Origin: a virus
Taxonomy: Duplodnaviria > Caudoviricetes
Virus record (IMG/VR): IMGVR_UViG_3300028920_000023
Direction: 5' to 3' (one strand)
DNA length: 64,000 bases
Shown here: one piece after another, positions 4,155-40,752 of the stretch
Position numbering within the stretch: position 1 is the first letter of the stretch
Layout of the letters: each line of letters opens with the position of its first letter
Translations under genes and position numbers: made by a program
The notes under the pieces: generated by a model
Databases searched by the model: none
The model's input: only the letters and a program-made list of their open reading frames with translations
What the model was told of the DNA's origin: nothing

Positions 4155-4601
4155 TTGCATCTCATAAAAAACAGGGCCATTATAATCCTGCACAGAATCA
4201 AACAAAATCCTATCTAAAACCACATCCAAAGAATCGGTCTTAAGAGTCTTCATCCTCACCGAACGAATATGGTCAGCCTCCTTACGCATACCCTTCACCA
4301 AATCGATTAACTCGGCCTTAGCAGCCTCCTTATCACCCTTCTGCGTGCCCTTCAAAATCTTGGTATTAACACGCAATTTCTGAGCTAATTTCTTAGACAA
4401 CATAGGATCAATATTTTCCAGATCACCAACAAGATCCAAAACCAAAGAAGAAGCATCTTGGACAGTAGGAGAATTAGCTAACAGACGAACAGTCTGACCA
4501 CTCTTGGTAAGCAGCTTAACCCAATAATCCTTAGGAAGAATCTTAAATGCCTCTTCTTCCTTCTTACGCCCAAGAAACCTATCAAAAATACCTTCCTGCA
4601 T
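4143..4601 (-). CDS. Hypothetical protein
   Basis: AAGGGGG RBS then ATG at 4601 (MQEGIFDRFLG). Confidence 0.75.
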   Translation of the reverse strand: MQEGIFDRFLGRKKEEEAFKILPKDYWVKLLTKSGQTVRLLANSPTVQDASSLVLDLVGDLENIDPMLSKKLAQKLRVNTKILKGTQKGDKEAAKAELIDLVKGMRKEADHIRSVRMKTLKTDSLDVVLDRILFDSVQDYNGPVFYEMQSFS

Positions 4602-4614
4602 AATAGACCCCCTT

Positions 4615-6600
4615 TTAAATATTTTTAACAGCAAGCCTCTTCTCTAAAGGAAGTTTGCTCCTCTCCTCATAAATCTTAAAATCATCCACAGTAGCATCCT
4701 CTATAACAGAATCAACATCATCCTTATCACGTTTAGAATTATGCCAATGAATATGCTCAAACAAAACACTCTCACCCCTCAAATCCTTAAGAAGATCCAT
4801 CTCCTTCAAATTATCATATAACTCATTATCAGAATATTGATGCACATACGCAGGATGATAAATCACCCTATTCAAACGAATCAAACACAAAGAATCCATA
4901 ATAGGCAAAGTAACAATATCATTAGTCTGATACCCATCATTAATTATCAAACAACCATCAAAATCCTCAAACTGATCAATAACATACCTATCCCAAGACC
5001 TCATTCTAGGGACAAAATCATCAGAAGCCAAAATAACAATCTCACCAGGCAAGAAATCTAAAGACTTAGTCAACTGATGACAAGCATAAGTAACACCCTT
5101 CCGCTCGTCACCAACAACCAACACCTTCTCAATAGGCAAACCAGAATCCAGAACCTCCTTCTTCTGCTCCTCAGTATTCACAGCAACCACACACTCAATA
5201 CACTTAGAATTACCACAAAAATCCAACCACTGCTTATAAGATTCAGCAAACATCTTCGGGCGTACTGTAGGCCACAACAAATAAATCCTAGGATCCATCT
5301 TTTGAGCAGCCACAGAAGTCATCTTACGATGCATAAACTTAACATTCCCAGCCAATCTAGGATCAGAAGGATTCTTCCTCCAAGCATCAATAGCATGTTT
5401 CCGAGCCTCATGAACCAAACCAATCCTAGAACCACACAAACAAGCATAATCATGCGGAGTATGATCCCACGCAAAAGCCTCCGTAGTATAATGCTTAGGA
5501 CGATCAGTAATCTCCAAAGCCTTCATAGCAGCAAAATAACCCTCCAAATGCAAATTATGCTGCCAACAAAAACCAGCCAACTCAACCCACGGTTCACGTT
5601 CATACGGAGTCTCAGCCACAGACCTACGGAACCACGCATGCTGCTCCTTAGAATTACCCAAAGCACCATAACTCTTAGCAATATACCTCATAGAACAAGA
5701 ACGCTCAGCATCCCACTGAGCACGCGGTAAACTCAAATGCCTCTTACATTCAGCAATACACTCCTTGTGCTTACCATAAAAGAAATACTCCCTACCAAGA
5801 TAATAAGCCTTCCTATCATCATCCGGATCCTCAACCTTACTAGCCTCCAATAGGGGAAAATACTGAGAACGACTCTTAGAATTATCAGGATAATGCTCAA
5901 TCTTACAATCACACCAACCCTGAATCTCACGCTTAGGACCAATATAAGCCAAAACTTCATGCACAGGGTGCACCCACTTAAACTCATTCCGAGTATGAAT
6001 CTTATCAGCATAATAAATAATATCAGGCTCCTTACCAACCACCTTCCAACTCCAAGTATAAGGATACCTAAACCTATTACAACCCTGCTTAAAAGCCCTC
6101 TCGATATGCCCCCTCCATCCCTCAACCATAACCTCATCTAAATCCAAACAGATACAAATATCAAAATCTTTAGGAACCAACTCCAAAGAACGATTCCTAG
6201 CCACATCAAAACGCCAAGGCTTGCCCAGCCTCTTCTTCCACTCCTCAGTACGAGTACACTCAGGCCAATCATCCCAACTCAAAGTAACATTACCAACCTT
6301 AGCGCCACAATCCTTCAACAACTGAACCGTATTATCAGTACTACCCGTATCCCCAACAGCAATCAAATCCGCATCAGCACAACTCTTACAGAACCTCTCA
6401 ACAAAAGCTTCCTCATTCTTCGAAATAGTATAAACAGCAATCTTCAAAGGCTTATCCACCTTAATAATATTAGGTCCTTGCTTCTTAGCAACCTTCTTAA
6501 TAGTCTTCACCTTCGGAACACAACTCTCTTCAGGAACAGACTCACAAAACACCTTCTTAGCAGCCTTTTTAGCAGCCTTTTTAGTGACCTTTTTAGCCAT
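4615..6600 (-). CDS. Glycosyltransferase: Lys/Ala-rich N-tail, GT2 domain, TPR region, second GT-A-like domain
   Basis: IAVYTISKNEE, GDTGSTDNT, RFDVARN, CLDLDE (DXD); TPR-like YYLGREY/REPWVELA; C-terminal ILASDDF, NDG, YSDNEL, FEHIHW. Confidence 0.9.
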   Translation of the reverse strand: MAKKVTKKAAKKAAKKVFCESVPEESCVPKVKTIKKVAKKQGPNIIKVDKPLKIAVYTISKNEEAFVERFCKSCADADLIAVGDTGSTDNTVQLLKDCGAKVGNVTLSWDDWPECTRTEEWKKRLGKPWRFDVARNRSLELVPKDFDICICLDLDEVMVEGWRGHIERAFKQGCNRFRYPYTWSWKVVGKEPDIIYYADKIHTRNEFKWVHPVHEVLAYIGPKREIQGWCDCKIEHYPDNSKSRSQYFPLLEASKVEDPDDDRKAYYLGREYFFYGKHKECIAECKRHLSLPRAQWDAERSCSMRYIAKSYGALGNSKEQHAWFRRSVAETPYEREPWVELAGFCWQHNLHLEGYFAAMKALEITDRPKHYTTEAFAWDHTPHDYACLCGSRIGLVHEARKHAIDAWRKNPSDPRLAGNVKFMHRKMTSVAAQKMDPRIYLLWPTVRPKMFAESYKQWLDFCGNSKCIECVVAVNTEEQKKEVLDSGLPIEKVLVVGDERKGVTYACHQLTKSLDFLPGEIVILASDDFVPRMRSWDRYVIDQFEDFDGCLIINDGYQTNDIVTLPIMDSLCLIRLNRVIYHPAYVHQYSDNELYDNLKEMDLLKDLRGESVLFEHIHWHNSKRDKDDVDSVIEDATVDDFKIYEERSKLPLEKRLAVKNI

Positions 6601-12775: not shown

Positions 12776-14296
12776 TTATATGATTATCTGCCATTTCTTT
12801 TTACCTAGATCAAAGACCTTGTGAAAACCTTGTGAAGATCTAAGTTCTACTTCTGTCTTGCCCAAATCCTTTTCCGCCTTACTCTTCCTTAAGGCAGATT
12901 TATGAAACCTTGTAGAATTCTTGACCCAATAATAATCGGGTTTAACATCTGAGACGTAGGTCATCCCCATTATCTTATAAACATTCCCAACCATAAGACG
13001 ATTATCAGAGAAAGTAATCAATTTACCAGATATTATTCCCTTCTTCTTGATCCATTTCATGATATACGACCAAATACCATGGACTCTAAAGTCATAATTA
13101 CAGGCCATTCTAGATATTTCCCAATCTCCGGACTTCTGTCTGGTAGGCCTCTTTATGGATAAACAAGCAATTAATTCAAGATCGTAAAAAACACCAACAT
13201 GATAAACCGAATTAACATGCCCTTGATAATGAAATTTTTCGTAAAATGGTCTAACATCTCTGTTGGAACAGATTCTTAATTCACAATCCTTCGGCCTAAT
13301 ACTCCTAGTTTCAATAGATCCAATTTTATTACTAATTATCTTATTAAATAGTTCTCGTGATGAATTGAATTCATCACTATAAATTAATATATCTGGTCTA
13401 ACATTCAATGCATAAGGACAAGAAACATCATAAATTTCATACAAAATGCCCTCGCTATAAACCAGTTCATGAAAACAATGATTGTTTAATCTTGTAATCC
13501 ACCCCAATAATTCAGGTATTCTACTATCAATTTGGTTTCCATAATCAGAAGAACGAATTGTTGCGATTTCTAAAGCAAGAGATACCCTGTCATGCTTGAA
13601 CTTAATATACGGCAACAACTTAGGAACCCACCTCAATATAGCCCTGGACATCATTCGGATCTGTTTTGTATCTCTCCTGTTGCCTACGCCCCTACATGAA
13701 CCAACCTTCAGACTAAGTATCTTGGCTAAGTATTCTACACAAAAATGATCAGTAAGTGAAATCTTAATATATGGCTTCTTATTCTTACTATTAAATCTCC
13801 CAGTGGTTACAGTTCCATCACCATCAATAAGTCCAGCTAACCACGATAAAGAGAAAACATGATCCGAAACTCGCTCGCCAATATCAGCCTCCTTGCCACG
13901 TTTATTGATGTCTGACAATTTCAGTAATAAATCATCCCATTCTTTCTTTTGATCCTCAGTATATGGCGTAAAATCGTCAGAATCTTTTATATTTATAGCT
14001 TGAAGACAAATTTTAGCCTGTCTTCTCTTAACATACAAATAAGGTAATATACCTTGAATCAAAAACCTGAGTTTATTTCCATAAAAGGTAATCTCATAAT
14101 AAGACTTACCGGAATATTTGGCATCCAATAAACTAGCGATATATGGGACAATTATTTTGTCAGTGGTTTTAATTCTGGCTCTGACTCTTCTAATCGTTAC
14201 ATCATATTTTCCTCTCTTAGCTTTTTGATAATTCATCTGAAAAGAACCTTCAGCATCTACAACGCCAGCAATATAAGCCCAATCATCATTTGTCAT
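12776..14296 (-). CDS. Free-standing homing-endonuclease-like chimera: two LAGLIDADG motifs plus Hef-like/Mom-like C-terminal domain
   Basis: YIAGVVDAEGSF and WLAGLIDGDGTV; C-terminal FHYQG, WEISRMA, LITFSDNR, GNVY, PDYYW, RFHK, KVFDLGKKKW. Confidence 0.8.
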   Translation of the reverse strand: MTNDDWAYIAGVVDAEGSFQMNYQKAKRGKYDVTIRRVRARIKTTDKIIVPYIASLLDAKYSGKSYYEITFYGNKLRFLIQGILPYLYVKRRQAKICLQAINIKDSDDFTPYTEDQKKEWDDLLLKLSDINKRGKEADIGERVSDHVFSLSWLAGLIDGDGTVTTGRFNSKNKKPYIKISLTDHFCVEYLAKILSLKVGSCRGVGNRRDTKQIRMMSRAILRWVPKLLPYIKFKHDRVSLALEIATIRSSDYGNQIDSRIPELLGWITRLNNHCFHELVYSEGILYEIYDVSCPYALNVRPDILIYSDEFNSSRELFNKIISNKIGSIETRSIRPKDCELRICSNRDVRPFYEKFHYQGHVNSVYHVGVFYDLELIACLSIKRPTRQKSGDWEISRMACNYDFRVHGIWSYIMKWIKKKGIISGKLITFSDNRLMVGNVYKIMGMTYVSDVKPDYYWVKNSTRFHKSALRKSKAEKDLGKTEVELRSSQGFHKVFDLGKKKWQIII

Positions 14297-14410: not shown

Positions 14411-15637
14411 GTGTTAGCAGACTTCTTCTTCAAACAAAGAAAACTCTCAATACTACTAGACGGCTCAGCAGGAAGCTCCGGAAAAGGCAGAACAGGCTCC
14501 TGGATAACAGAAAACTCACAAAATTGGCAATTCTGCACAAACACCTTCGCACCGCAAGCCGGACACTGGGTCAAACTCCAAAACGGAAAACAATACTTCT
14601 ACCAAACCCTAAACAGCTGCGCATACCAAGAACACTATGAAAAAATGTACCTCGCCCCCGGCGCGATGATAGAACTACCGGCATTATGGCGAGAACTGGA
14701 AGAAAACAACATAAAACCACACAAACTAGGCATCCACCCACTAACACAAATCCTACAAGACATAGACGCCAAATTCGAACGAGGACAAGTAGACCTCGAC
14801 GGAAATGAACTAGAAAACATCCACGACGGAACGATGCGCGCAGGAACCACAGCACACGGCGTAGGAGCATGCCGAGCAAGACGAATACTCAGAAGAAAAG
14901 AAGCAAAATTCGCCAGAGATATACCAGAACTAAACGAATTTATCTGCGACACCAGCAAAGAAATAATGGACAGACTAGAATCAGGACAAGCCGGATTCAT
15001 GGAAATCGCACAAGGATACCAACTATCCTACATGCTATCCCAATTCTACCCATACTGCACAAGCCGAAACTGCACAGTCGCAGCAGCCATGGACGACTCC
15101 ATGCTCCCAGTCCACCTAGCCGGGAACGTAATGATAAACTTCAGAAGTTACCCAATACGAATCAACAGCAAAAAATACATATCACTAAAAGACGGACACC
15201 ACCTCACCTGGCAAGAAATCCAAAACGGAACAGAAGGAACAGACTACAAAATCATAAACAGCCCAAGCGGACACGGGTACCCAGACCAAGAAGAAACAAC
15301 CTGGGAACACGTAACAGAAACATCCGGATCAAAAGAACCAATCCTAGAAATGACCAGCGTCACCAAACTACCCAGACGCGTATTCACATTCAGCAAACAA
15401 AACGTAGAAGACGCCATACGAGCAAACAGAGCAAACGGAGAAGTCTACTGCAGCCTAAACTTCATAGACTACATAGACTCAAAATTAGCAGGAAAAAACG
15501 GCATCGACAAAACAACATCAAAAACACAAGAATGGATAGACAACAACTTCCCACAAAAACACAGACTAGCACTTCTCGGAACAGGACCACACACAGAAGA
15601 TACCATAATCAGATTGAGAGACACCATCCTACCATAA
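14411..15637 (+). CDS. purZ: PurZ-type adenylosuccinate-synthetase homolog (N6-succino-2-amino-dAMP synthase)
   Basis: DGSAGSSGKG (Ser where PurA has the catalytic Asp of GDEGKG), PQAGH, YPYCTSRNCT, RSYPIR, TSVTKLPRRVFTFS, SLNFIDY, GTGP; GTG start with AAAGGAG RBS. Confidence 0.85.
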   Translation: MLADFFFKQRKLSILLDGSAGSSGKGRTGSWITENSQNWQFCTNTFAPQAGHWVKLQNGKQYFYQTLNSCAYQEHYEKMYLAPGAMIELPALWRELEENNIKPHKLGIHPLTQILQDIDAKFERGQVDLDGNELENIHDGTMRAGTTAHGVGACRARRILRRKEAKFARDIPELNEFICDTSKEIMDRLESGQAGFMEIAQGYQLSYMLSQFYPYCTSRNCTVAAAMDDSMLPVHLAGNVMINFRSYPIRINSKKYISLKDGHHLTWQEIQNGTEGTDYKIINSPSGHGYPDQEETTWEHVTETSGSKEPILEMTSVTKLPRRVFTFSKQNVEDAIRANRANGEVYCSLNFIDYIDSKLAGKNGIDKTTSKTQEWIDNNFPQKHRLALLGTGPHTEDTIIRLRDTILP

Positions 15638-27987: not shown

Positions 27988-28476
27988 ATGAACCACAAAC
28001 TCCAAACCAAACTACAACAAACACTCCAAACCCAACTAACCAAACAACAACTACAACAATACCTAACCAAAAAAGGCCACACCAACCCACACCAACCCAT
28101 CAACCCACAAACCATACAAGACCTACCCCAACAAATACCCACACTCACACACAACACCGAAATACAACCCACAATCCAAAACATCAACCCCCAAACCAAC
28201 ACAACCACCATCCAATGGAACCTCTACACCAACGCAACAAACCGCCTAAACCTAGGAACCACAACCCACACCAACCTAAACAACATCAACACCCCAATAC
28301 ACACCACACCACAACAACAAACAAACCCAAACTGGACAACACCACACAAACTCACACAATTCATAACCAAAACCCTACAAAAACACAAAACCCAACAACA
28401 AACCCAAAACACACAACAAACAACCCCACCACCACAAACACAAAACCCAACCACAAACCAACACCAACCCACATAA
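27988..28476 (+). CDS. Low-complexity Q/T/N-rich ORF
   Basis: Possibly a product of the extreme A/C skew. Confidence 0.35.
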   Translation: MNHKLQTKLQQTLQTQLTKQQLQQYLTKKGHTNPHQPINPQTIQDLPQQIPTLTHNTEIQPTIQNINPQTNTTTIQWNLYTNATNRLNLGTTTHTNLNNINTPIHTTPQQQTNPNWTTPHKLTQFITKTLQKHKTQQQTQNTQQTTPPPQTQNPTTNQHQPT

Positions 28477-28510
28477 AACCCCCAAAACCCACCACAAACC
28501 CAACACACAA

Positions 28511-28824
28511 AAACCACACACTCGCAAAAAAACAAACCGGGTCCTACATAACACATAAAAACCAACGCACGGAAACCACACACTCGCAAAAAAACAAACC
28601 GGGTCCTACATAACACATAAAAACCAACGCACGGAAACCACACACTCGCAAAAAAACAAACCGGGTCCTACATAAAAACCAACACTCGCTAAAAAACGAT
28701 ACAAAACCCAACGCACGGAAACCACACACTCGCAAAAAAACAAACCGGGTCCTACATAAAAACCAACACTCGCTAAAAAACGATACAAAACCCAACGCAC
28801 GGAAACCACACGCTCGCTAAAAAA
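28511..28824. repeat. Non-coding tandem repeat (periods 62, 62, 84, 84 nt; core AAACCGGGTCCTACATA)
   Basis: AAACCACAC unit starts at 28511, 28573, 28635, 28719, 28803. Confidence 0.9.
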
Positions 28825-28918
28825 GGGCCTGACCCCCTCACCAAGAATATCCACCACATGTGCGCCATAATTCGGTAGATAATCCCCCCTTATGGCGGAC
28901 AGCCCCGTTCAGCGGCCA

Positions 28919-29156
28919 CGGTCGCCAGACAAAGCTGCCCGCCACAAACCCCACAGCGCAGAAAACAAAGACACGCTGGAAGGGCGGTCGCCAGACAAAG
29001 CTGCCCGCCACAACACCAGCAGAACGGGGACAGCAGGCCACCGGACAAGCCGGTCGCCAGACAAAGCTGCCCGCCACAAACCCCACAGAGGGGACGCAAC
29101 ACCGGCACAGCAGGCCACCGGACAAGCCGGTCGCCAGACAAAGCTGCCCGCCACAA
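28919..29156 (+). repeat. Four 29-nt direct repeats CGGTCGCCAGACAAAGCTGCCCGCCACAA
   Basis: Starts at 28919, 28985, 29051, 29128 (periods 66, 66, 77). Confidence 0.93.
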
Positions 29157-29229
29157 ACCGAACAGGACGGAAGCCACTGGAGGCAACCGCCCACAAACCC
29201 CAGAGCCCAAAAGGGCAAGGAGACAGAAC

Positions 29230-29589
29230 ATGGACAAGGCAATCGCAGAATTGGTGAAGAACAACGGCCTCACCGAAGAGCAAGCCACAATCGTCATCAA
29301 AGCTCAAGAGGTCCAGGCCAAGAAAAACCAGAAGGCCCTGGAAAAGGTGAGCAAATACCCACACGCCATCACTGAGACCCTTCGCCACGATCCCGTTGCG
29401 AAGAAGAATCAGGTCCAAATTCGCTGCGTCGAGTGCGGCGACACCACACGCTGGGTCTACACCTCAGACCTCTTCCAGGTCAAGCACTGCACAGAGTGCG
29501 GAAAGAAAGCTCGGGCCGAGAAGGCCAAGCAGAAGGCAGCCGAAACCAAAGCGGCCCTCGAGGCTTACAGGCAGAGCCTCCTGAAATAA
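29230..29589 (+). CDS. Zn-ribbon protein (paralog of 32515-32874)
   Basis: CVECG..HCTECG; AAGGAG RBS. Confidence 0.85.
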   Translation: MDKAIAELVKNNGLTEEQATIVIKAQEVQAKKNQKALEKVSKYPHAITETLRHDPVAKKNQVQIRCVECGDTTRWVYTSDLFQVKHCTECGKKARAEKAKQKAAETKAALEAYRQSLLK

Positions 29590-29598
29590 GGAGACTTT

Positions 29599-29630
29599 CC
29601 TCCGGGGAAAGCTCAAGCTTTCCCCGGAGG
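29599..29630 (+). other. Perfect 14-bp hairpin immediately before hammerhead 1 (no U-tract)
   Basis: CCTCCGGGGAAAGC-TCAA-GCTTTCCCCGGAGG. Confidence 0.8.
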
Positions 29631-29633
29631 GCA

Positions 29634-29687
29634 CCCAACTGAAGAGGCCAGGCGGTCCCTGGCCGAAACACCCTCGGGTGTCTTGGG
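29634..29687 (+). ncRNA. Canonical type I hammerhead ribozyme, copy 1
   Basis: Stem I CCCAA/UUGGG; CUGAAGA; stem II GGCCAGG-CGGUC-CCUGGCC; GAAA; stem III CACC-CUCG-GGUG; GUC cleavage site after 29682. Confidence 0.92.
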
Positions 29688-29737
29688 AAACCACAGTCTT
29701 TCCAGCGAGGACAACCACAGAACACAAGGAGACCATC

Positions 29738-29929
29738 GTGGAATTCGTCTTCAGAGCCAGAGAACTTATGCATCTTCAATCTTTCGCCTTGCTTGTCACC
29801 AAGCTTAAGCGCTTGCACATCGAGTTCCACCTTAAGTGGACTGACGATGCTATGCAAGTGTCTTTGATTACAAACACAAAGATCGACCTTTGTATAGTCT
29901 CTAGACCATATCTGCGTGAACCCAACTGA
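29738..29929 (+). CDS. 63-aa ORF between two identical hammerheads
   Basis: AAGGAG RBS, GTG start; stop TGA is the hammerhead core UGA. Confidence 0.55.
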   Translation: MEFVFRARELMHLQSFALLVTKLKRLHIEFHLKWTDDAMQVSLITNTKIDLCIVSRPYLREPN

Positions 29930-29974
29930 AGAGGCCAGGCGGTCCCTGGCCGAAACACCCTCGGGTGTCTTGGG
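29921..29974 (+). ncRNA. Canonical type I hammerhead ribozyme, copy 2 (identical 54 nt)
   Basis: Same sequence as 29634-29687; cleavage after 29969. Confidence 0.92.
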
Positions 29975-29998
29975 AAACCACATTGAAAGGAGGCAGAA

Positions 29999-30328
29999 AT
30001 GCCAAACCAGATCCCAAGCAACCTCCCCGGACACGTGCAGCGGAGGCTGCTTTCCCAGGTGGAAAGGCCCGCAAGGGCTTTCTTGCTTGCGACGGAACTC
30101 GCGAAATCCTGGAAGACCTCTTCATTCCTTGAGGAAGACAACATTGAGCAAAAATTCCTCACGGCCTATGGGGCCTGCGAGCCCAACCTCCAGAAGCGCC
30201 TCTCACAGGCTCTCAAGAGATATCGAAGAGCCTGCAGGCAAGCCAACATTTCGCCGGATGACCGCTTCAGCGTCCTCCGATACACCCACCTCAAGCCGAA
30301 GAAAATCCCAGTGAACAGCTTGGCCTGA
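29999..30328 (+). CDS. Hypothetical protein
   Basis: AAAGGAGG RBS. Confidence 0.8.
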   Translation: MPNQIPSNLPGHVQRRLLSQVERPARAFLLATELAKSWKTSSFLEEDNIEQKFLTAYGACEPNLQKRLSQALKRYRRACRQANISPDDRFSVLRYTHLKPKKIPVNSLA

Positions 30329-30388
30329 ACCAAGCGAAGCCCTTTCCTCTCTGGAAAGGGCAGGGACACAGAAGGAGAAAGGAGAAGG

Positions 30389-30589
30389 ATGACAAACGCA
30401 GAACTCATCGAGCTGCTCCAGAAGCAGCCGCCCGAGCAGGAAGCCCTGCTCACGATAGTGGACGAAGACACAATGACAACCTCGGTGGAGGCCCTCCACC
30501 GGGTTGACAAAGAAGAACTCATCCAGGATGGGTTCGACCTCGAAGACGCTAAAGATGCCGAGCCTATCGGTATCTTCATCAAGCGATAA
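30389..30589 (+). CDS. Small acidic protein
   Basis: AAGGAG RBS; MTNAELIELLQKQPPE pattern. Confidence 0.8.
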   Translation: MTNAELIELLQKQPPEQEALLTIVDEDTMTTSVEALHRVDKEELIQDGFDLEDAKDAEPIGIFIKR

Positions 30590-30767
30590 ATCTGTGCTCG
30601 AAAAACCCGCATGGAGCGCCTGCCAAGGCCCCATGAGATGGGGGACTCACATCGGCACCGACCGGAAACCGGTACGGGGTTTCCCCGAGCACTTGAAAAG
30701 AACGAAGCCCTTTCCTCACTGGAAAGGGCCGGGGCAACAGAAAGGAGAAAACATGCAAGTCGTTAGT

Positions 30768-30811
30768 TCCTGATGAGTTTTCGAAACCCTCTCCCACCGG
30801 AGAGGGTAGGG
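30768..30811 (+). ncRNA. Minimal hammerhead-like motif (family A), canonical core, GUA site
   Basis: CUGAUGA-G(UUUU)C-GAA-ACCCUCUCC/GGAGAGGGU-A-GGG. Confidence 0.7.
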
Positions 30812-30829
30812 ACACAGAAAGGAGAAAAC

Positions 30830-31217
30830 ATGAACGAAGAACAATTCATCACGAACCTGCTTACGGAGATCGTTAAACCCGAGTACGACATCCAGCAGGG
30901 GGAAGCAGTCGCAGTCAAATACGTCCCTGGGGACGTCCCAGCTTACGATTTGATCGTAAACGTCAAAGAGAAGAACTATGGACAAATGAAACTATCAGTC
31001 CTTGGGTTCTTCATCCAGAAAGGAGAACGAGAGAGCTTTCATGCTGATATCGAGCGGGATCACCTCGACGCCAAAGGAACCTTCACCTACTGGAGAAGCC
31101 TACTTCGATGAACTGGAAGAAAATCTGGAGCAAGTCCCAGACAAGAAAGCCGTCATCCAATACTTCTCCGAGACATTCGACGTATACACTACAACCGCTC
31201 TTGAAATGAACACCTGA
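30830..31217 (+). pseudogene. Hypothetical gene apparently split by a +1 frameshift near 31085
   Basis: ORF 30830-31111; protein-like text EAYFDELEENLEQ.. continues in the +1 frame to 31217. Confidence 0.5.
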
Positions 31218-31245
31218 AACACCTTATCAATCCTTGCTATATGCA

Positions 31246-31318
31246 ATTTGGCAGCTCTTGCTATCTCAAAATATTTTGACCCATATGATTCAGAACTCGA
31301 TTTGGCAGCTCTTGCTAT
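31246..31318. repeat. Pair of ATTTGGCAGCTCTTGCTAT 19-mers, 54 nt apart
   Basis: Copies at 31246 and 31300. Confidence 0.85.
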
Positions 31319-31353
31319 GTTGCTGTTAATACCCCCATACAAGAGAAGACAAG

Positions 31354-31397
31354 CCCTGACGAGAAAAGAAACCCTTTCCTCTCTGGAAAGGGTAGGG
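31354..31397 (+). ncRNA. Hammerhead-like motif (family A)
   Basis: CUGACGA-GAAAA-GAA-ACCCUUUCC/GGAAAGGGU-AGGG. Confidence 0.55.
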
Positions 31398-31417
31398 ACA
31401 CAGAAAAAGGAGAAAAC

Positions 31418-31852
31418 ATGGCCAAATACGTCTCGAAAGACAGAACGATGATCGTAGGAGTCCACAGCCTCAAACCCATCAAAAGACAAGACGGAAGAAA
31501 AAGACCACTCCAAGACATCCTCATCTCTCGCAAAGATGTCCTGGAATTAGAACTAACAACAAATTTCTACGACTTCCGAGAAGATCCAGGAAAACACCTG
31601 GCAGACCCAAACATCCAAGTAGCCCATCAATTCCAAGGGCTAAAAGCCCTCGGACGAACCAGTACCTGGTACTTCCTCATCGAGAACAAACTCTACCGAC
31701 GTCTCAGCTACACCGACCTCGGAATAAAAGGCAAACGGCGCGGGTTATGCAATCAAAAACAAAACCGCCCCGTCTACTACGTCGTCGAAATGAGCACCAC
31801 AGCCCTCGACGACATCAAAGCAGAACTGAAGAAAACCAAATCCAACATCTGA
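31418..31852 (+). CDS. Hypothetical protein
   Basis: AAGGAG RBS; stop lies inside the next motif. Confidence 0.8.
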   Translation: MAKYVSKDRTMIVGVHSLKPIKRQDGRKRPLQDILISRKDVLELELTTNFYDFREDPGKHLADPNIQVAHQFQGLKALGRTSTWYFLIENKLYRRLSYTDLGIKGKRRGLCNQKQNRPVYYVVEMSTTALDDIKAELKKTKSNI

Positions 31853-31909: not shown

Positions 31910-32107
31910 ATGGCAACAGTAAAATACAAAATCAGATTCTTCACCGGACACTTCGCAGGACACACCCTCACCCAAGAACTCAGCTTCCCAAACACCAGAA
32001 TAGCAAGAAACTGGATACAAAACGTCCAACTCCGCATACTCCCAGAGAACTACTTCGATAACGAACGCTTCCTAGGCGACTTCGAAATCTCCGAGCTATG
32101 CCCCTGA
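31910..32107 (+). CDS. Hypothetical protein
   Basis: AAGGAGG RBS. Confidence 0.8.
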   Translation: MATVKYKIRFFTGHFAGHTLTQELSFPNTRIARNWIQNVQLRILPENYFDNERFLGDFEISELCP

Positions 32108-32142
32108 CGACGAGAAAACCACCCAAAACAGGGTGGTTAGGG
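32101..32142 (+). ncRNA. Hammerhead-like motif (family A, stem II lost)
   Basis: CCC-CUGACGA-CGA-GAAA-ACCACCC/GGGUGGU-UA-GGG. Confidence 0.45.
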
Positions 32143-32182
32143 ACAAACCAGGAGGAAAACACATGCGCTAAAGGAGAAAAAC

Positions 32183-32514: not shown

Positions 32515-32874
32515 ATGCAAGAACGAATCACAGAACTCGTCGAGAACAACGGCCTGAGCCAGGAGCAAGCAACAATCGTCGCCAAGGCTGAAGAGACCCA
32601 GGCCAAGAAAGCCCAGAAGGCCCTGGAAAAGGTGAGCAAATACCCACACGCCATCATCAACACCCTCACCCACGACCCAGTGGCCAAAAAGAACAAAGTG
32701 CAGATCGAGTGCGTCGAGTGCGGCGACACCACACGCTGGGTCTACACCTCGGACCTCTTCCAAGTTCGTCACTGCACAGAGTGTGGCAAGAAGGCCAAGG
32801 CCGAGAAGGCCAAGCAGAAGGCAGCCGAAACCAAGGCAGCCCTCGAAGCCTACCGCGCAAGCCTGAAGGACTAA
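32515..32874 (+). CDS. Zn-ribbon protein (paralog of 29230-29589)
   Basis: Near-identical to the 29230 protein. Confidence 0.85.
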   Translation: MQERITELVENNGLSQEQATIVAKAEETQAKKAQKALEKVSKYPHAIINTLTHDPVAKKNKVQIECVECGDTTRWVYTSDLFQVRHCTECGKKAKAEKAKQKAAETKAALEAYRASLKD

Positions 32875-32875
32875 A

Positions 32876-32916
32876 CCTGACGAGGTACGAATCCCTTTCC
32901 CTAGTGGAAAGGGAAG
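32876..32916 (+). ncRNA. Hammerhead-like motif (family A)
   Basis: CUGACGA-G(GUA)C-GAA-UCCCUUUCC/GGAAAGGGA. Confidence 0.55.
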
Positions 32917-32938
32917 AAACCAAACAAGGAGAACAAAA

Positions 32939-35256: not shown

Positions 35257-35309
35257 GGGTTCTGATGAGGCTTTGGCCGAAACAGAGGGGTGTTTTTCTC
35301 TGTTTGTGT
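35257..35309 (+). ncRNA. Hammerhead-like motif (family B)
   Basis: CUGAUGA-GGC(UUUG)GCC-GAAA-CAGAG..CUCUG-UU. Confidence 0.6.
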
Positions 35310-37539: not shown

Positions 37540-38145
37540 ATGTCGATTGCTGATTTTGATGTTCGATATCGTTTTGTGCCGAAGGATCAGCTGGTGCGGT
37601 TGGATGCGGATGTGGGGTCTTTTGAGGTTAGGGAGCAGCTCACGAGGGCTGTGGCTTGTGGTTTTGGTACGTTTCGGGTGGTGGGGTTGGCTGTTCCGGA
37701 GTTTGATGGGGAGATGAGTGCGGAGTTGCGTGCTCGGTTGGATGCGGGTTTTTGGGTTGTTGAGGAAGGTGATGTGTTGTATGATCGGACTTTTGTGGCT
37801 GTGTTGTTTGAGCCTAAGTGTTTGGTGTTTGTGCCTTTTGGTAGGGATGGGGTGGCTGGGGATTCGGGGTTTTTTCCTTCTTCGGAGGATCTTGGTTCGG
37901 TGTATCGTGAGGGGATGAGTTTTGAGGAGATGCTTGCTGTTCCTGCGTATTTGCAGGGCGATGGTGTTCCGCTTACTCCTGAGGAGGTGGCTGGTTTTTG
38001 GGTGTTGGAGCGGGATAAGCTGGAGACGATGCTTGGTGTTTGTCCTGATGATCTTGATGATGATGGTGCTGTGTATGCGGCGAATTGTGGTCTGAAGACG
38101 GGTATTGCTCATGCTGCTGTGCGGATTGTGGAGCGTCCTGTCTGA
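37540..38145 (+). CDS. Hypothetical protein
   Basis: GAGGAAGG RBS, 201 aa. Confidence 0.75.
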   Translation: MSIADFDVRYRFVPKDQLVRLDADVGSFEVREQLTRAVACGFGTFRVVGLAVPEFDGEMSAELRARLDAGFWVVEEGDVLYDRTFVAVLFEPKCLVFVPFGRDGVAGDSGFFPSSEDLGSVYREGMSFEEMLAVPAYLQGDGVPLTPEEVAGFWVLERDKLETMLGVCPDDLDDDGAVYAANCGLKTGIAHAAVRIVERPV

Positions 38146-38150
38146 GTTGG

Positions 38151-38203
38151 GTAGGCTGATGAGGCTTTGGCCGAAACAGAGGAGGGTGTTTCTCTGTTTG
38201 TGT
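38151..38203 (+). ncRNA. Hammerhead-like motif (family B)
   Basis: Core identical to the 36738 copy. Confidence 0.6.
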
Positions 38204-39259: not shown

Positions 39260-39605
39260 ATGGCTGGGCGGGTTCTGGAGGATGGTTTCGAGATTGGTGA
39301 TCTTAAGGATGAGTTTGGGGCGGAGGCGCTGGAGTGATCTTAAGGATGAGTTTGGGGCGGAGGCGCTGGAGAAGTTGGAGTTGATGGATCCTGCTAGCCT
39401 CAAGACGTCGAAGATTCAGAAGCAGAAGGTTGAGGGTGTTGGGCGTGTTGAGTGCTGGGTGGATGCGTGCTCGGTGGATGCGGATATGGGCCATGTTCGT
39501 TTCTGGCGTCTTCTCGATGTTGTCGATGGGGAGGGGGTTCCGGTTGTTCTTGAGGAGGATTATGGTGAGGGTTTGCTTTTTTATGGGCGGAATTACACTC
39601 TCTGA
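39260..39605 (+). pseudogene. Gene broken by an exact 37-nt tandem duplication
   Basis: 39298-39334 duplicated at 39335-39371; creates a stop and a frameshift. Confidence 0.75.
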
Positions 39606-39641
39606 TGAGTTTCGAATCCTTTTCCTTCGTGGAGGGGGATG
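39601..39641 (+). ncRNA. Hammerhead-like motif (family A)
   Basis: CUGAUGA-G(UUU)C-GAA-UCCUUUUCC/GGAGGGGGA. Confidence 0.5.
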
Positions 39642-39665
39642 TTAACCTTAACAAAGGAGGTGGTG

Positions 39666-40674: not shown

Positions 40675-40690
40675 TATTTGTTCACGTTCC

Positions 40691-40731
40691 TCTGATGAGT
40701 TTCGAATCCTTTTCCTTCGTGGAGGGGGAAG
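40691..40731 (+). ncRNA. Hammerhead-like motif (family A; duplicate of 39601)
   Basis: Near-identical to 39601, including the downstream RBS. Confidence 0.5.
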
Positions 40732-40752
40732 TTACCCTAACAAAGGAGGACA

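Follow-up and report, generated by a model that had tools for sequence, protein, structure and literature searches.

Twin predicted type I hammerhead ribozymes around one short gene in a large uncultured phage from marine sediment

At the head of an array of small genes in a large uncultured phage, two identical motifs that qualify, judged by their core and helices, as bona fide type I hammerhead ribozymes bracket a single short gene. Double cleavage would release from this locus a 287-nt RNA carrying one gene, with a 5′-OH and a 2′,3′-cyclic phosphate at its ends. We regard as probable the whole of the following explanation, where active hammerheads cut the phage message into single-gene mRNAs, and either the gain of a cassette or a gene conversion has left two identical ribozymes behind. 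A layout of this kind was described in phages as early as 2011, and the locus reported here is a clean further example of it. The locus leaves our knowledge of hammerheads unchanged and does not support the existence of phage circular RNAs. To our knowledge, the function of the many hammerheads encoded in phage genomes is unproven fifteen years after their discovery, and this locus makes an unusually clean test case. An assay in vitro or in E. coli would be easy to read because the two ribozymes are identical, a single short gene with its own ribosome-binding site (RBS) lies between them, and the sizes of the products are defined.

The window (the whole stretch of DNA that was analysed, 64 kb in length) belongs to a large uncultured phage of marine sediment. 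Its gene content includes a purZ-like gene, a LAGLIDADG-Mom fusion, collagen-like and DUF4116 proteins and a helicase, together with matches to PHROG families. The locus heads a plus-strand array of small genes, which follows two blocks of tandem repeats, and is laid out in the order stop codon, ribozyme, RBS, open reading frame (ORF), ribozyme, RBS and next gene. The features that define it are the following:

29230..29589, plus strand: upstream gene, encoding a 119-aa zinc-ribbon-like protein, the first gene after the repeat block (ORF list)
29599..29630, plus strand: 15-bp hairpin, perfectly paired and lacking a U-tract; it directly follows the upstream stop codon and closely precedes ribozyme 1 (inverted repeat, fold)
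29633..29695, plus strand: repeat copy 1, a predicted complete ribozyme module (repeat search, descriptor, fold, model R1)
29634-29687, plus strand: predicted type I hammerhead 1, with predicted cleavage at 29682/29683 and a 3′ tail at 29688-29695
29696..29919, plus strand: unique insert of 224 nt between the repeats, GC 0.46 vs 0.55-0.57 in the flanking genes
29726..29731, plus strand: Shine-Dalgarno AAGGAG, separated by 6 nt from the GTG start (sequence)
29738..29929, plus strand: 63-codon ORF with a GTG start and a UGA stop (ORF list, composition)
29920..29982, plus strand: repeat copy 2, 100% identical to copy 1 (repeat search, descriptor, fold, model R1)
29921-29974, plus strand: predicted type I hammerhead 2, with predicted cleavage at 29969/29970 and a 3′ tail at 29975-29982
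29987..29993, plus strand: Shine-Dalgarno AAGGAGG serving the downstream gene, separated by 5 nt from the ATG and following stem I of ribozyme 2 at a distance of 13 nt
29999..30328, plus strand: downstream gene, 109 aa (ORF list)

The two copies form an exact direct repeat of 63 nt, with 287 nt from start to start, whose 31-nt core occurs only at these two sites in the 64-kb window and did not turn up in 100 shuffles. Both hammerheads show a 5-bp stem I (CCCAA/UUGGG), a 7-bp stem II capped by a CGGUC loop and a 5-bp stem III, which starts at A15.1-U16.1 and is capped by a CUCG loop. Stem I is open and stems II and III are closed by loops, as in the type I topology. The conserved core of the type (C3 U4 G5 A6 N7 G8 A9, G12 A13 A14, H17) is found in both copies as CUGAAGA at C3-A9, GAA at G12-A14 and C17 at the cleavage site, and is flanked by the pairs G10.1-C11.1, A15.1-U16.1 and N1.1-N2.1. 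A strict type I descriptor retrieved 2 motifs from the window, against 0.015 in simulated windows. An earlier note on this DNA had described identical copies of 54 nt placed 287 nt apart; identity and spacing hold, but the exact repeat extends over 63 nt. The canonical core nucleotides, 5-bp stem I and 7-bp stem II that it listed are all present in both copies, according to the descriptor and the sequence alike. The excised RNA that it predicted (29683-29969, 287 nt) agrees with the positions of C17, 29682 and 29969. It had also placed an RBS and a 63-codon ORF between the copies, which we recover as AAGGAG at 29726-29731, GTG at 29738 and a stop codon at 29927-29929.

For the isolated 54-mer, the three-way junction is the minimum free energy (MFE) structure, at -24.6 kcal/mol. 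In the native context, the hammerhead fold lies 0-1.7 kcal/mol above the MFE and has an ensemble probability of 9-32%, before any tertiary stabilisation, and, going by the models, either copy can reach it thermodynamically in its own surroundings. In the MFE of the 287-nt unit, the core of ribozyme 2 pairs with positions 29750-29756 rather than forming the hammerhead. The heptamer UCUUCAG, which occupies these positions within the ORF, is complementary to the ribozyme 2 core CUGAAGA (29926-29932), and their predicted pairing may be either a competing fold or a matter of chance.

A search of the whole window with Rfam at the gathering threshold returned one tRNA and no other match. At the E-value threshold, no model of the hammerhead clan matched the two copies save RAGATH-1-hammerhead (RF03152), below its cut-off; this was the best Rfam score on the locus, with 19.8 bits against a cut-off of 56.3 bits. 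An alignment to LAGLIDADG-2, obtained at the same E-value threshold, was discarded as spurious. Because the curated Rfam hammerhead models stayed below threshold, we built a covariance model of our own (R1) from 59 phage type I hammerheads found in viral and metagenome contigs, with the window excluded. When R1 was run over the whole 64-kb window with the filters off, both copies scored 65.3 bits (E about 1e-18), and the next best hit in the window reached 14.9 bits.

A tertiary contact between the side of stem I and loop II is needed by hammerheads for fast cleavage at physiological Mg2+ concentrations. The repeat includes, after stem I, an 8-nt 3′ tail (AAACCACA), whose ACC can pair with the GGU of loop II, although only 3 bp are predicted in this locus. 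Across the class, the pairs between loop II and the tail are GGU:ACC (in this locus, in contigs L127-L130 and in L073), GGC:GCC, GGA:UCC and UUGAC:GUCAA. For the 64 distinct combinations of loop and tail in the class, the mean complementary run is 3.30, vs 2.46 ± 0.09 after permutation of the partners, and none of 1000 permutations reached the observed value. By this comparison loop II and the tail covary across the class, and the 8-nt tail appears to be functional. Such complementarity fits the pseudoknot-type tertiary contact that Perreault et al. (2011, PMC3088659) describe in hammerheads of each of the three types. Because the tail contact belongs to the module, the extent of the repeat is accounted for, and the 63 nt are, on this prediction, exactly one complete ribozyme module.

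The class as a whole tells more about the selection that these motifs may be under. In alignment A2, the stems vary yet stay paired, at 94.5% of pairs, a figure that is not independent evidence because the descriptor by which the sequences were picked requires the pairing. The covariation that preserves structure in the class indicates selection acting at the level of the RNA. Contigs L127-L130 and L073 are unrelated to the present locus, and yet they have stem I, stem III and the AAACC tail in common with it. L128-L130 carry the motif between a stop codon and an RBS followed by an ATG.

The gene enclosed by the two ribozymes differs from those around it. Third-position T reaches 0.27 in the 63-codon ORF vs 0.00-0.14 in ten in-frame neighbour genes, this avoidance being a hallmark of the strand skew of the phage, and the GC content of the ORF is 0.44 vs 0.55-0.56 in the two adjoining genes. 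In terms of composition, the insert is foreign. The final codons of the ORF are encoded by stem I of ribozyme 2, and its stop codon is the UGA of the CUGA core of the same ribozyme; a ribosome translating the ORF enters ribozyme 2 and could disturb its folding. No homologue of the ORF but itself was found among 5.8 billion protein clusters, nor a paralogue of the insert in the 64-kb window, nor a match of the 63-aa protein in PHROG. The ESM Atlas offers a low-confidence ferredoxin-like lead for this protein, and a single-sequence AlphaFold prediction gives one long helix; because these structural hints contradict each other, we assign it no function.

The zinc-ribbon-like protein encoded upstream has homologues with 46-51% identity in other metagenome contigs, and its gene has a paralogue at about 32515-32874 with 82% nucleotide identity. 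The first of these paralogues is followed by the hairpin and a canonical hammerhead motif, and the second by a reduced boundary motif. We read the 15-bp hairpin as probably a stem that protects a 3′ end, and not as a terminator, because it has no U-tract. A wetland relative of the phage carries at this position a different, self-complementary (compensated) sequence, which suggests that the structure of the hairpin is conserved. No terminator-like site was found on the plus strand in 28400-31500, and no promoter-like site on this strand before 31248. On the 3′ side of the locus, the mRNA of the 109-aa gene is predicted to keep, after cleavage, a leader of 29 nt with a 5′-OH.

Other traits of this region were observed along the way. 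The blocks of tandem repeats directly upstream of the gene array (28500-28870 and 28887-29172) are made of A/C-rich units of 62 and 84 nt, and then of units of 66 and 77 nt that share a 29-mer. Their copy number differs between independent assemblies, and these blocks may be promoter or origin arrays. At about 33000, the plus strand turns from A/C-rich to G/T-rich, and GC skew goes from -0.14 to +0.28. Boundary motifs, and apparently the genes too, remain on the plus strand across this point, so the skew does not simply track the coding strand. In another part of the window, an adenylosuccinate-synthetase-like (PurZ-type) gene and the LAGLIDADG-Mom fusion adjoin each other (14411-15637 and 12776-14296), a pair that hints at a genome with modified bases.

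Motifs of the CUGANGA type are found at many later gene boundaries of the same strand. A recurrent form, located between a stop codon and the next RBS, consists of CUGA(U/C)GA-G, 2-4 nt, C-GAA and a strong hairpin of the CCCUUUCC/GGAAAGGG type. It occurs on the plus strand at 30765-30822, 31353-31406, 31849, 32099-32153, 32875-32925, 33346, 33671, 34164, 34889, 35681, 35888, 39597-39647, 40296, 40687-40737 and 41033. These motifs keep the core of the hammerhead, with a stem II of about 1 bp, a stem I that is barely pairable and R1 scores of at most 14.9 bits. By such measures the other boundary motifs are much reduced, and the two copies of this locus are the only canonical ones in the window. 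A set of five identical cores with a 3-bp stem II, a 6-bp stem III and G+T-rich flanks lies at 35262, 36743, 37467, 38156 and 38766, where no convincing stem I was seen in the type I register. The Rfam model Hammerhead_3 scores 21 bits at 38135-38182.

A scan of IMG/VR with a degenerate pattern retrieved at least 119 loci. Among the matches listed, at least 36 locus-strands carry two or more type I hammerheads on the same strand, and at least 34 non-redundant pairs of adjacent, same-strand type I motifs lie no more than 700 nt apart. In most of these listed pairs (26 of 34), an ORF of 42-190 codons lies between the two motifs and is closely preceded by an RBS-like word; roughly one in three ORFs within listed pairs ends inside the next ribozyme, as in the locus reported here. 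One of the 34 is 100% identical, in contig L126, with its copies 351 nt apart. The same contig (L126:96-6075) holds eleven near-identical type I hammerheads on one strand at spacings of 323-1151 nt, with stems I and II nearly constant and a stem III that varies. Four hammerheads at spacings of 284, 257 and 494 nt are found in contig L035. As far as sequence patterns can tell, phage contigs commonly carry type I hammerheads on the same strand, spaced by a single gene. [quoted passage not shown] 2011, PLoS Comput Biol, PMC3088659). Three multi-hammerhead transcripts of that study cleave in vitro into the expected pieces, with one case in vivo, and a processing into single-gene mRNAs was proposed. 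The defining arrangement of those clusters, at least two same-strand hammerheads in phage intergenic gaps that bracket a gene, is present in our locus.

In the explanation that we favour, both motifs would be active type I hammerheads of this phage-common class, which has a stem I of 4-5 bp and a 3′ tail pairing with loop II. Both would be part of a long polycistronic transcript of the plus strand, each ribozyme placed after one stop codon and ahead of the following RBS. Self-cleavage during transcription, or just after it, would give linear single-gene mRNAs. The pieces upstream of each cut would end in a compact ribozyme fold with a 2′,3′-cyclic phosphate, and those downstream would start with a 5′-OH a few dozen nucleotides before the RBS. 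The 287-nt piece would then be the monocistronic mRNA of the homologue-less 63-codon ORF. As for the 63-nt duplication, it is best taken as the trace of one of two recent events, the acquisition of a foreign gene plus ribozyme by homologous exchange at a resident ribozyme, or a gene conversion between the two ribozyme copies. The parts that we infer are cleavage in vivo, the course of recombination and a stabilising effect of the ends that cleavage would create.

A cassette history of this kind has a parallel in two other contigs. The flanks of L035:4247-5331 and of L028 (reverse strand, about 4375-5710) are 91-93% identical and include a shared 140-aa gene, and unrelated ORFs occupy two hammerhead-delimited slots. 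At the level of sequence comparison, this is direct evidence of cassette replacement with breakpoints at the ribozymes, and it supports the idea that hammerhead modules bound exchangeable gene slots. In our locus, the unit is present in 4 of 4 other assemblies, all of them of the same phage, and no close relative without the unit was recovered. Wetland and marsh runs contributed only fragments of relatives. In those of the wetland relative, which is 92% identical, the sequence after the ribozyme apparently matches the insert over its first 16 nt and then diverges, so the slot may exist there with other content and, given this relative, may be older than the word recent implies.

Searches further afield were also made for this locus. 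For the downstream gene, a single distant homologue was found, a 44% match, and the gap of 140 nt upstream of it is too short for the unit. In the relatives L006 and L007, a terminator hairpin or the end of the contig takes the place of a ribozyme. The 1.2-kb locus had no match among GenBank phages. Searches of IMG/VR with the upstream protein and the exact ribozyme retrieved nothing, the insert was likewise absent from 2.9 million viral contigs, and a scan of JGI metagenomes with an alignment of the downstream protein gave nothing. The earlier note had proposed a recently inserted cassette. The exact repeat, the foreign codons, the lack of homologues and the swapping seen elsewhere speak for it, whereas the wetland relative, in which the slot may predate such an event, speaks against it; a recently acquired, ribozyme-bounded cassette is in our opinion plausible. 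The companion proposal, that the exact duplication is an insertion footprint, fits a homologous exchange or a duplication at the ribozyme module, but not a target-site duplication of the transposase type, which is ruled out by a length of 63 nt, far too long for it.

The tandem arrangement itself could be thought of as an assembly artefact, caused either by a wrong join at the repeat or by a de Bruijn loop that was collapsed or expanded, as the unitigs of short k-mers do break at the repeat. Against it, an identical interval of 410 nt is shared by three independent assemblies, one from JGI and two from ENA. The k141 names of the two ENA contigs presumably stand, by MEGAHIT convention, for a k-mer of 141, longer than the 63-nt repeat. 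The 284-nt unitig of the insert and the downstream unitig have equal depths in X1 (45.9 vs 44.8) and in X2 (71.5 vs 69.1). Contigs from two marine-sediment DNA runs cover the locus and break at the repeat; none of them joins across the unit, and no deletion joint skipping it was seen in these runs. The tandem arrangement is not an assembly artefact, a possibility to which we give next to no weight. Another explanation would take the repeats as recombination modules only, 63-bp blocks of DNA homology in which cleavage is slow, conditional or irrelevant. An exact repeat with a foreign insert in between, the slot swapping at hammerhead boundaries in L035 vs L028 and the degenerate look of the other boundary motifs of the array, at 14.9 bits or less, all agree with this proposal. 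Yet the catalytic nucleotides, the three helices and the tail of the tertiary contact are intact in both copies, and the structure-preserving covariation of the class again points to selection on RNA, so we consider it unlikely that recombination is the whole story.

Two further explanations would make the excised RNA a circle or a mobile element. Stem I could hold together the ends of the 287-nt RNA, and either the host RtcB or self-ligation by the hammerhead could then seal a translatable or exonuclease-resistant circle, which, if true, would give DNA phages their first natural circular mRNA. Ends of the 5′-OH and 2′,3′-cyclic phosphate type are the substrate of RtcB, and those predicted here fit this ligase; moreover, the unit has its own RBS and ORF, and any monomer released by a tandem pair of type I hammerheads rebuilds a complete ribozyme where its two ends meet. 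This last property, however, would be common to every hammerhead-flanked phage gene and is not specific to the locus. The 287-nt unit is 60% paired (z = -1.84 vs shuffles), folding it as a circle brings no gain over the linear form, and it is neither rod-like nor unusually stable. The earlier note had called for a search for RtcB or reverse transcriptase, and neither of them, nor any RNA ligase, was found with Pfam and PHROGs among the 14 ORFs longer than 350 aa of the window. A ligase of the Rnl2 type would require RNA ends that have been healed. Circular or spliced prophage products were raised, looked for and not detected by Perreault et al. (2011, PMC3088659), and our search for later literature on phage circular RNAs derived from hammerheads found none. 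We judge the circular mRNA decidedly improbable, and the circular-RNA framing unsupported. A version in which the 287-nt RNA is ligated into a closed translatable mRNA, and the ribozyme module doubles as a DNA recombination linker between phages, seems to us very improbable; circularisation is rated this low because the fold is ordinary, the unit is coding and single-copy, and no ligase or reverse transcriptase appears among the scanned ORFs. A retrozyme-like retroelement would have its hammerhead-bounded RNA reverse-transcribed and reinserted, with the ribozyme as an LTR-like repeat, and the layout is formally alike, a direct repeat with a hammerhead and a short unit in between. The unit is present in a single copy in the window, with two ribozymes and one insert in 64 kb instead of a multi-copy family, and the insert and the exact ribozyme are both absent from the 2.9 million viral contigs. 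Moreover, it encodes a protein, whereas retrozymes are non-coding, it lacks their highly paired, rod-like or branched structure, the long ORFs that were scanned contain no reverse transcriptase, and the context is a prokaryotic phage. With a unit that is single-copy, protein-coding and not rod-like, in a phage array with boundary motifs, the retrozyme framing of the earlier note is unsupported, and we take such an origin to be extremely improbable.

Cleavage of a polycistronic message by active hammerheads, together with cassette gain or gene conversion, stays as our preferred explanation, and what it adds is modest. One addition is a covarying contact between loop II and the tail that would explain the extent of the repeat. 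The other, which is modestly new, is that hammerhead modules may bound exchangeable slots and act as boundaries for the exchange of gene cassettes, a notion supported by the foreign gene and the swapping of slots.

Some known systems resemble this locus in part. In the RAGATH-1 hammerhead family (RF03152), where a 5′ hairpin precedes a type I-like motif, copy 1 with its upstream hairpin can be aligned end to end; stem II has 1 bp there, in contrast with 7 bp here, and copy 2 has no 5′ hairpin. With the retrozymes and viroid-like RNAs (Cervera and de la Peña 2020, PMC7229834), the locus shares tandem hammerheads, a unit of a few hundred nucleotides and ends of the type joined by RtcB. Those are non-coding elements of eukaryotes, multi-copy and highly base-paired, that depend on a reverse transcriptase, whereas ours is a single-copy, RBS-led, protein-coding cassette with an ordinary fold (z = -1.84), carried by a DNA phage.

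The promoter-early stem-loop (PeSL) cassettes, which shuffle small genes in T4-type phages (Arbiol et al. 2010, PMC2839356), are another point of comparison. In both systems, short repeated regulatory modules flank small homologue-less genes in a plastic region. Recombination between neighbouring PeSL modules can insert, delete or swap single genes, and a similar exchange may have occurred at the module described here. PeSLs are made of promoter and terminator signals that act as DNA and as RNA, whereas our module is a predicted self-cleaving ribozyme, and, unlike in that system, no mini-circle or presence/absence variant of the unit was found among the recovered assemblies.

The closest relatives of the layout are the prophage clusters of Perreault et al. 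(2011). Their likeness to this locus extends to the same-strand intergenic hammerheads with a canonical core, one small gene of unknown function between them, a predicted contact of the pseudoknot type and the predicted single-gene mRNAs. Unlike those clusters, the present one belongs to a large uncultured sediment phage with reduced motifs at its other gene boundaries, and its cleavage is predicted. Its own distinctive traits are two copies that are 100% identical over a 63-nt module and a bracketed gene that is, by its composition, foreign to the phage.
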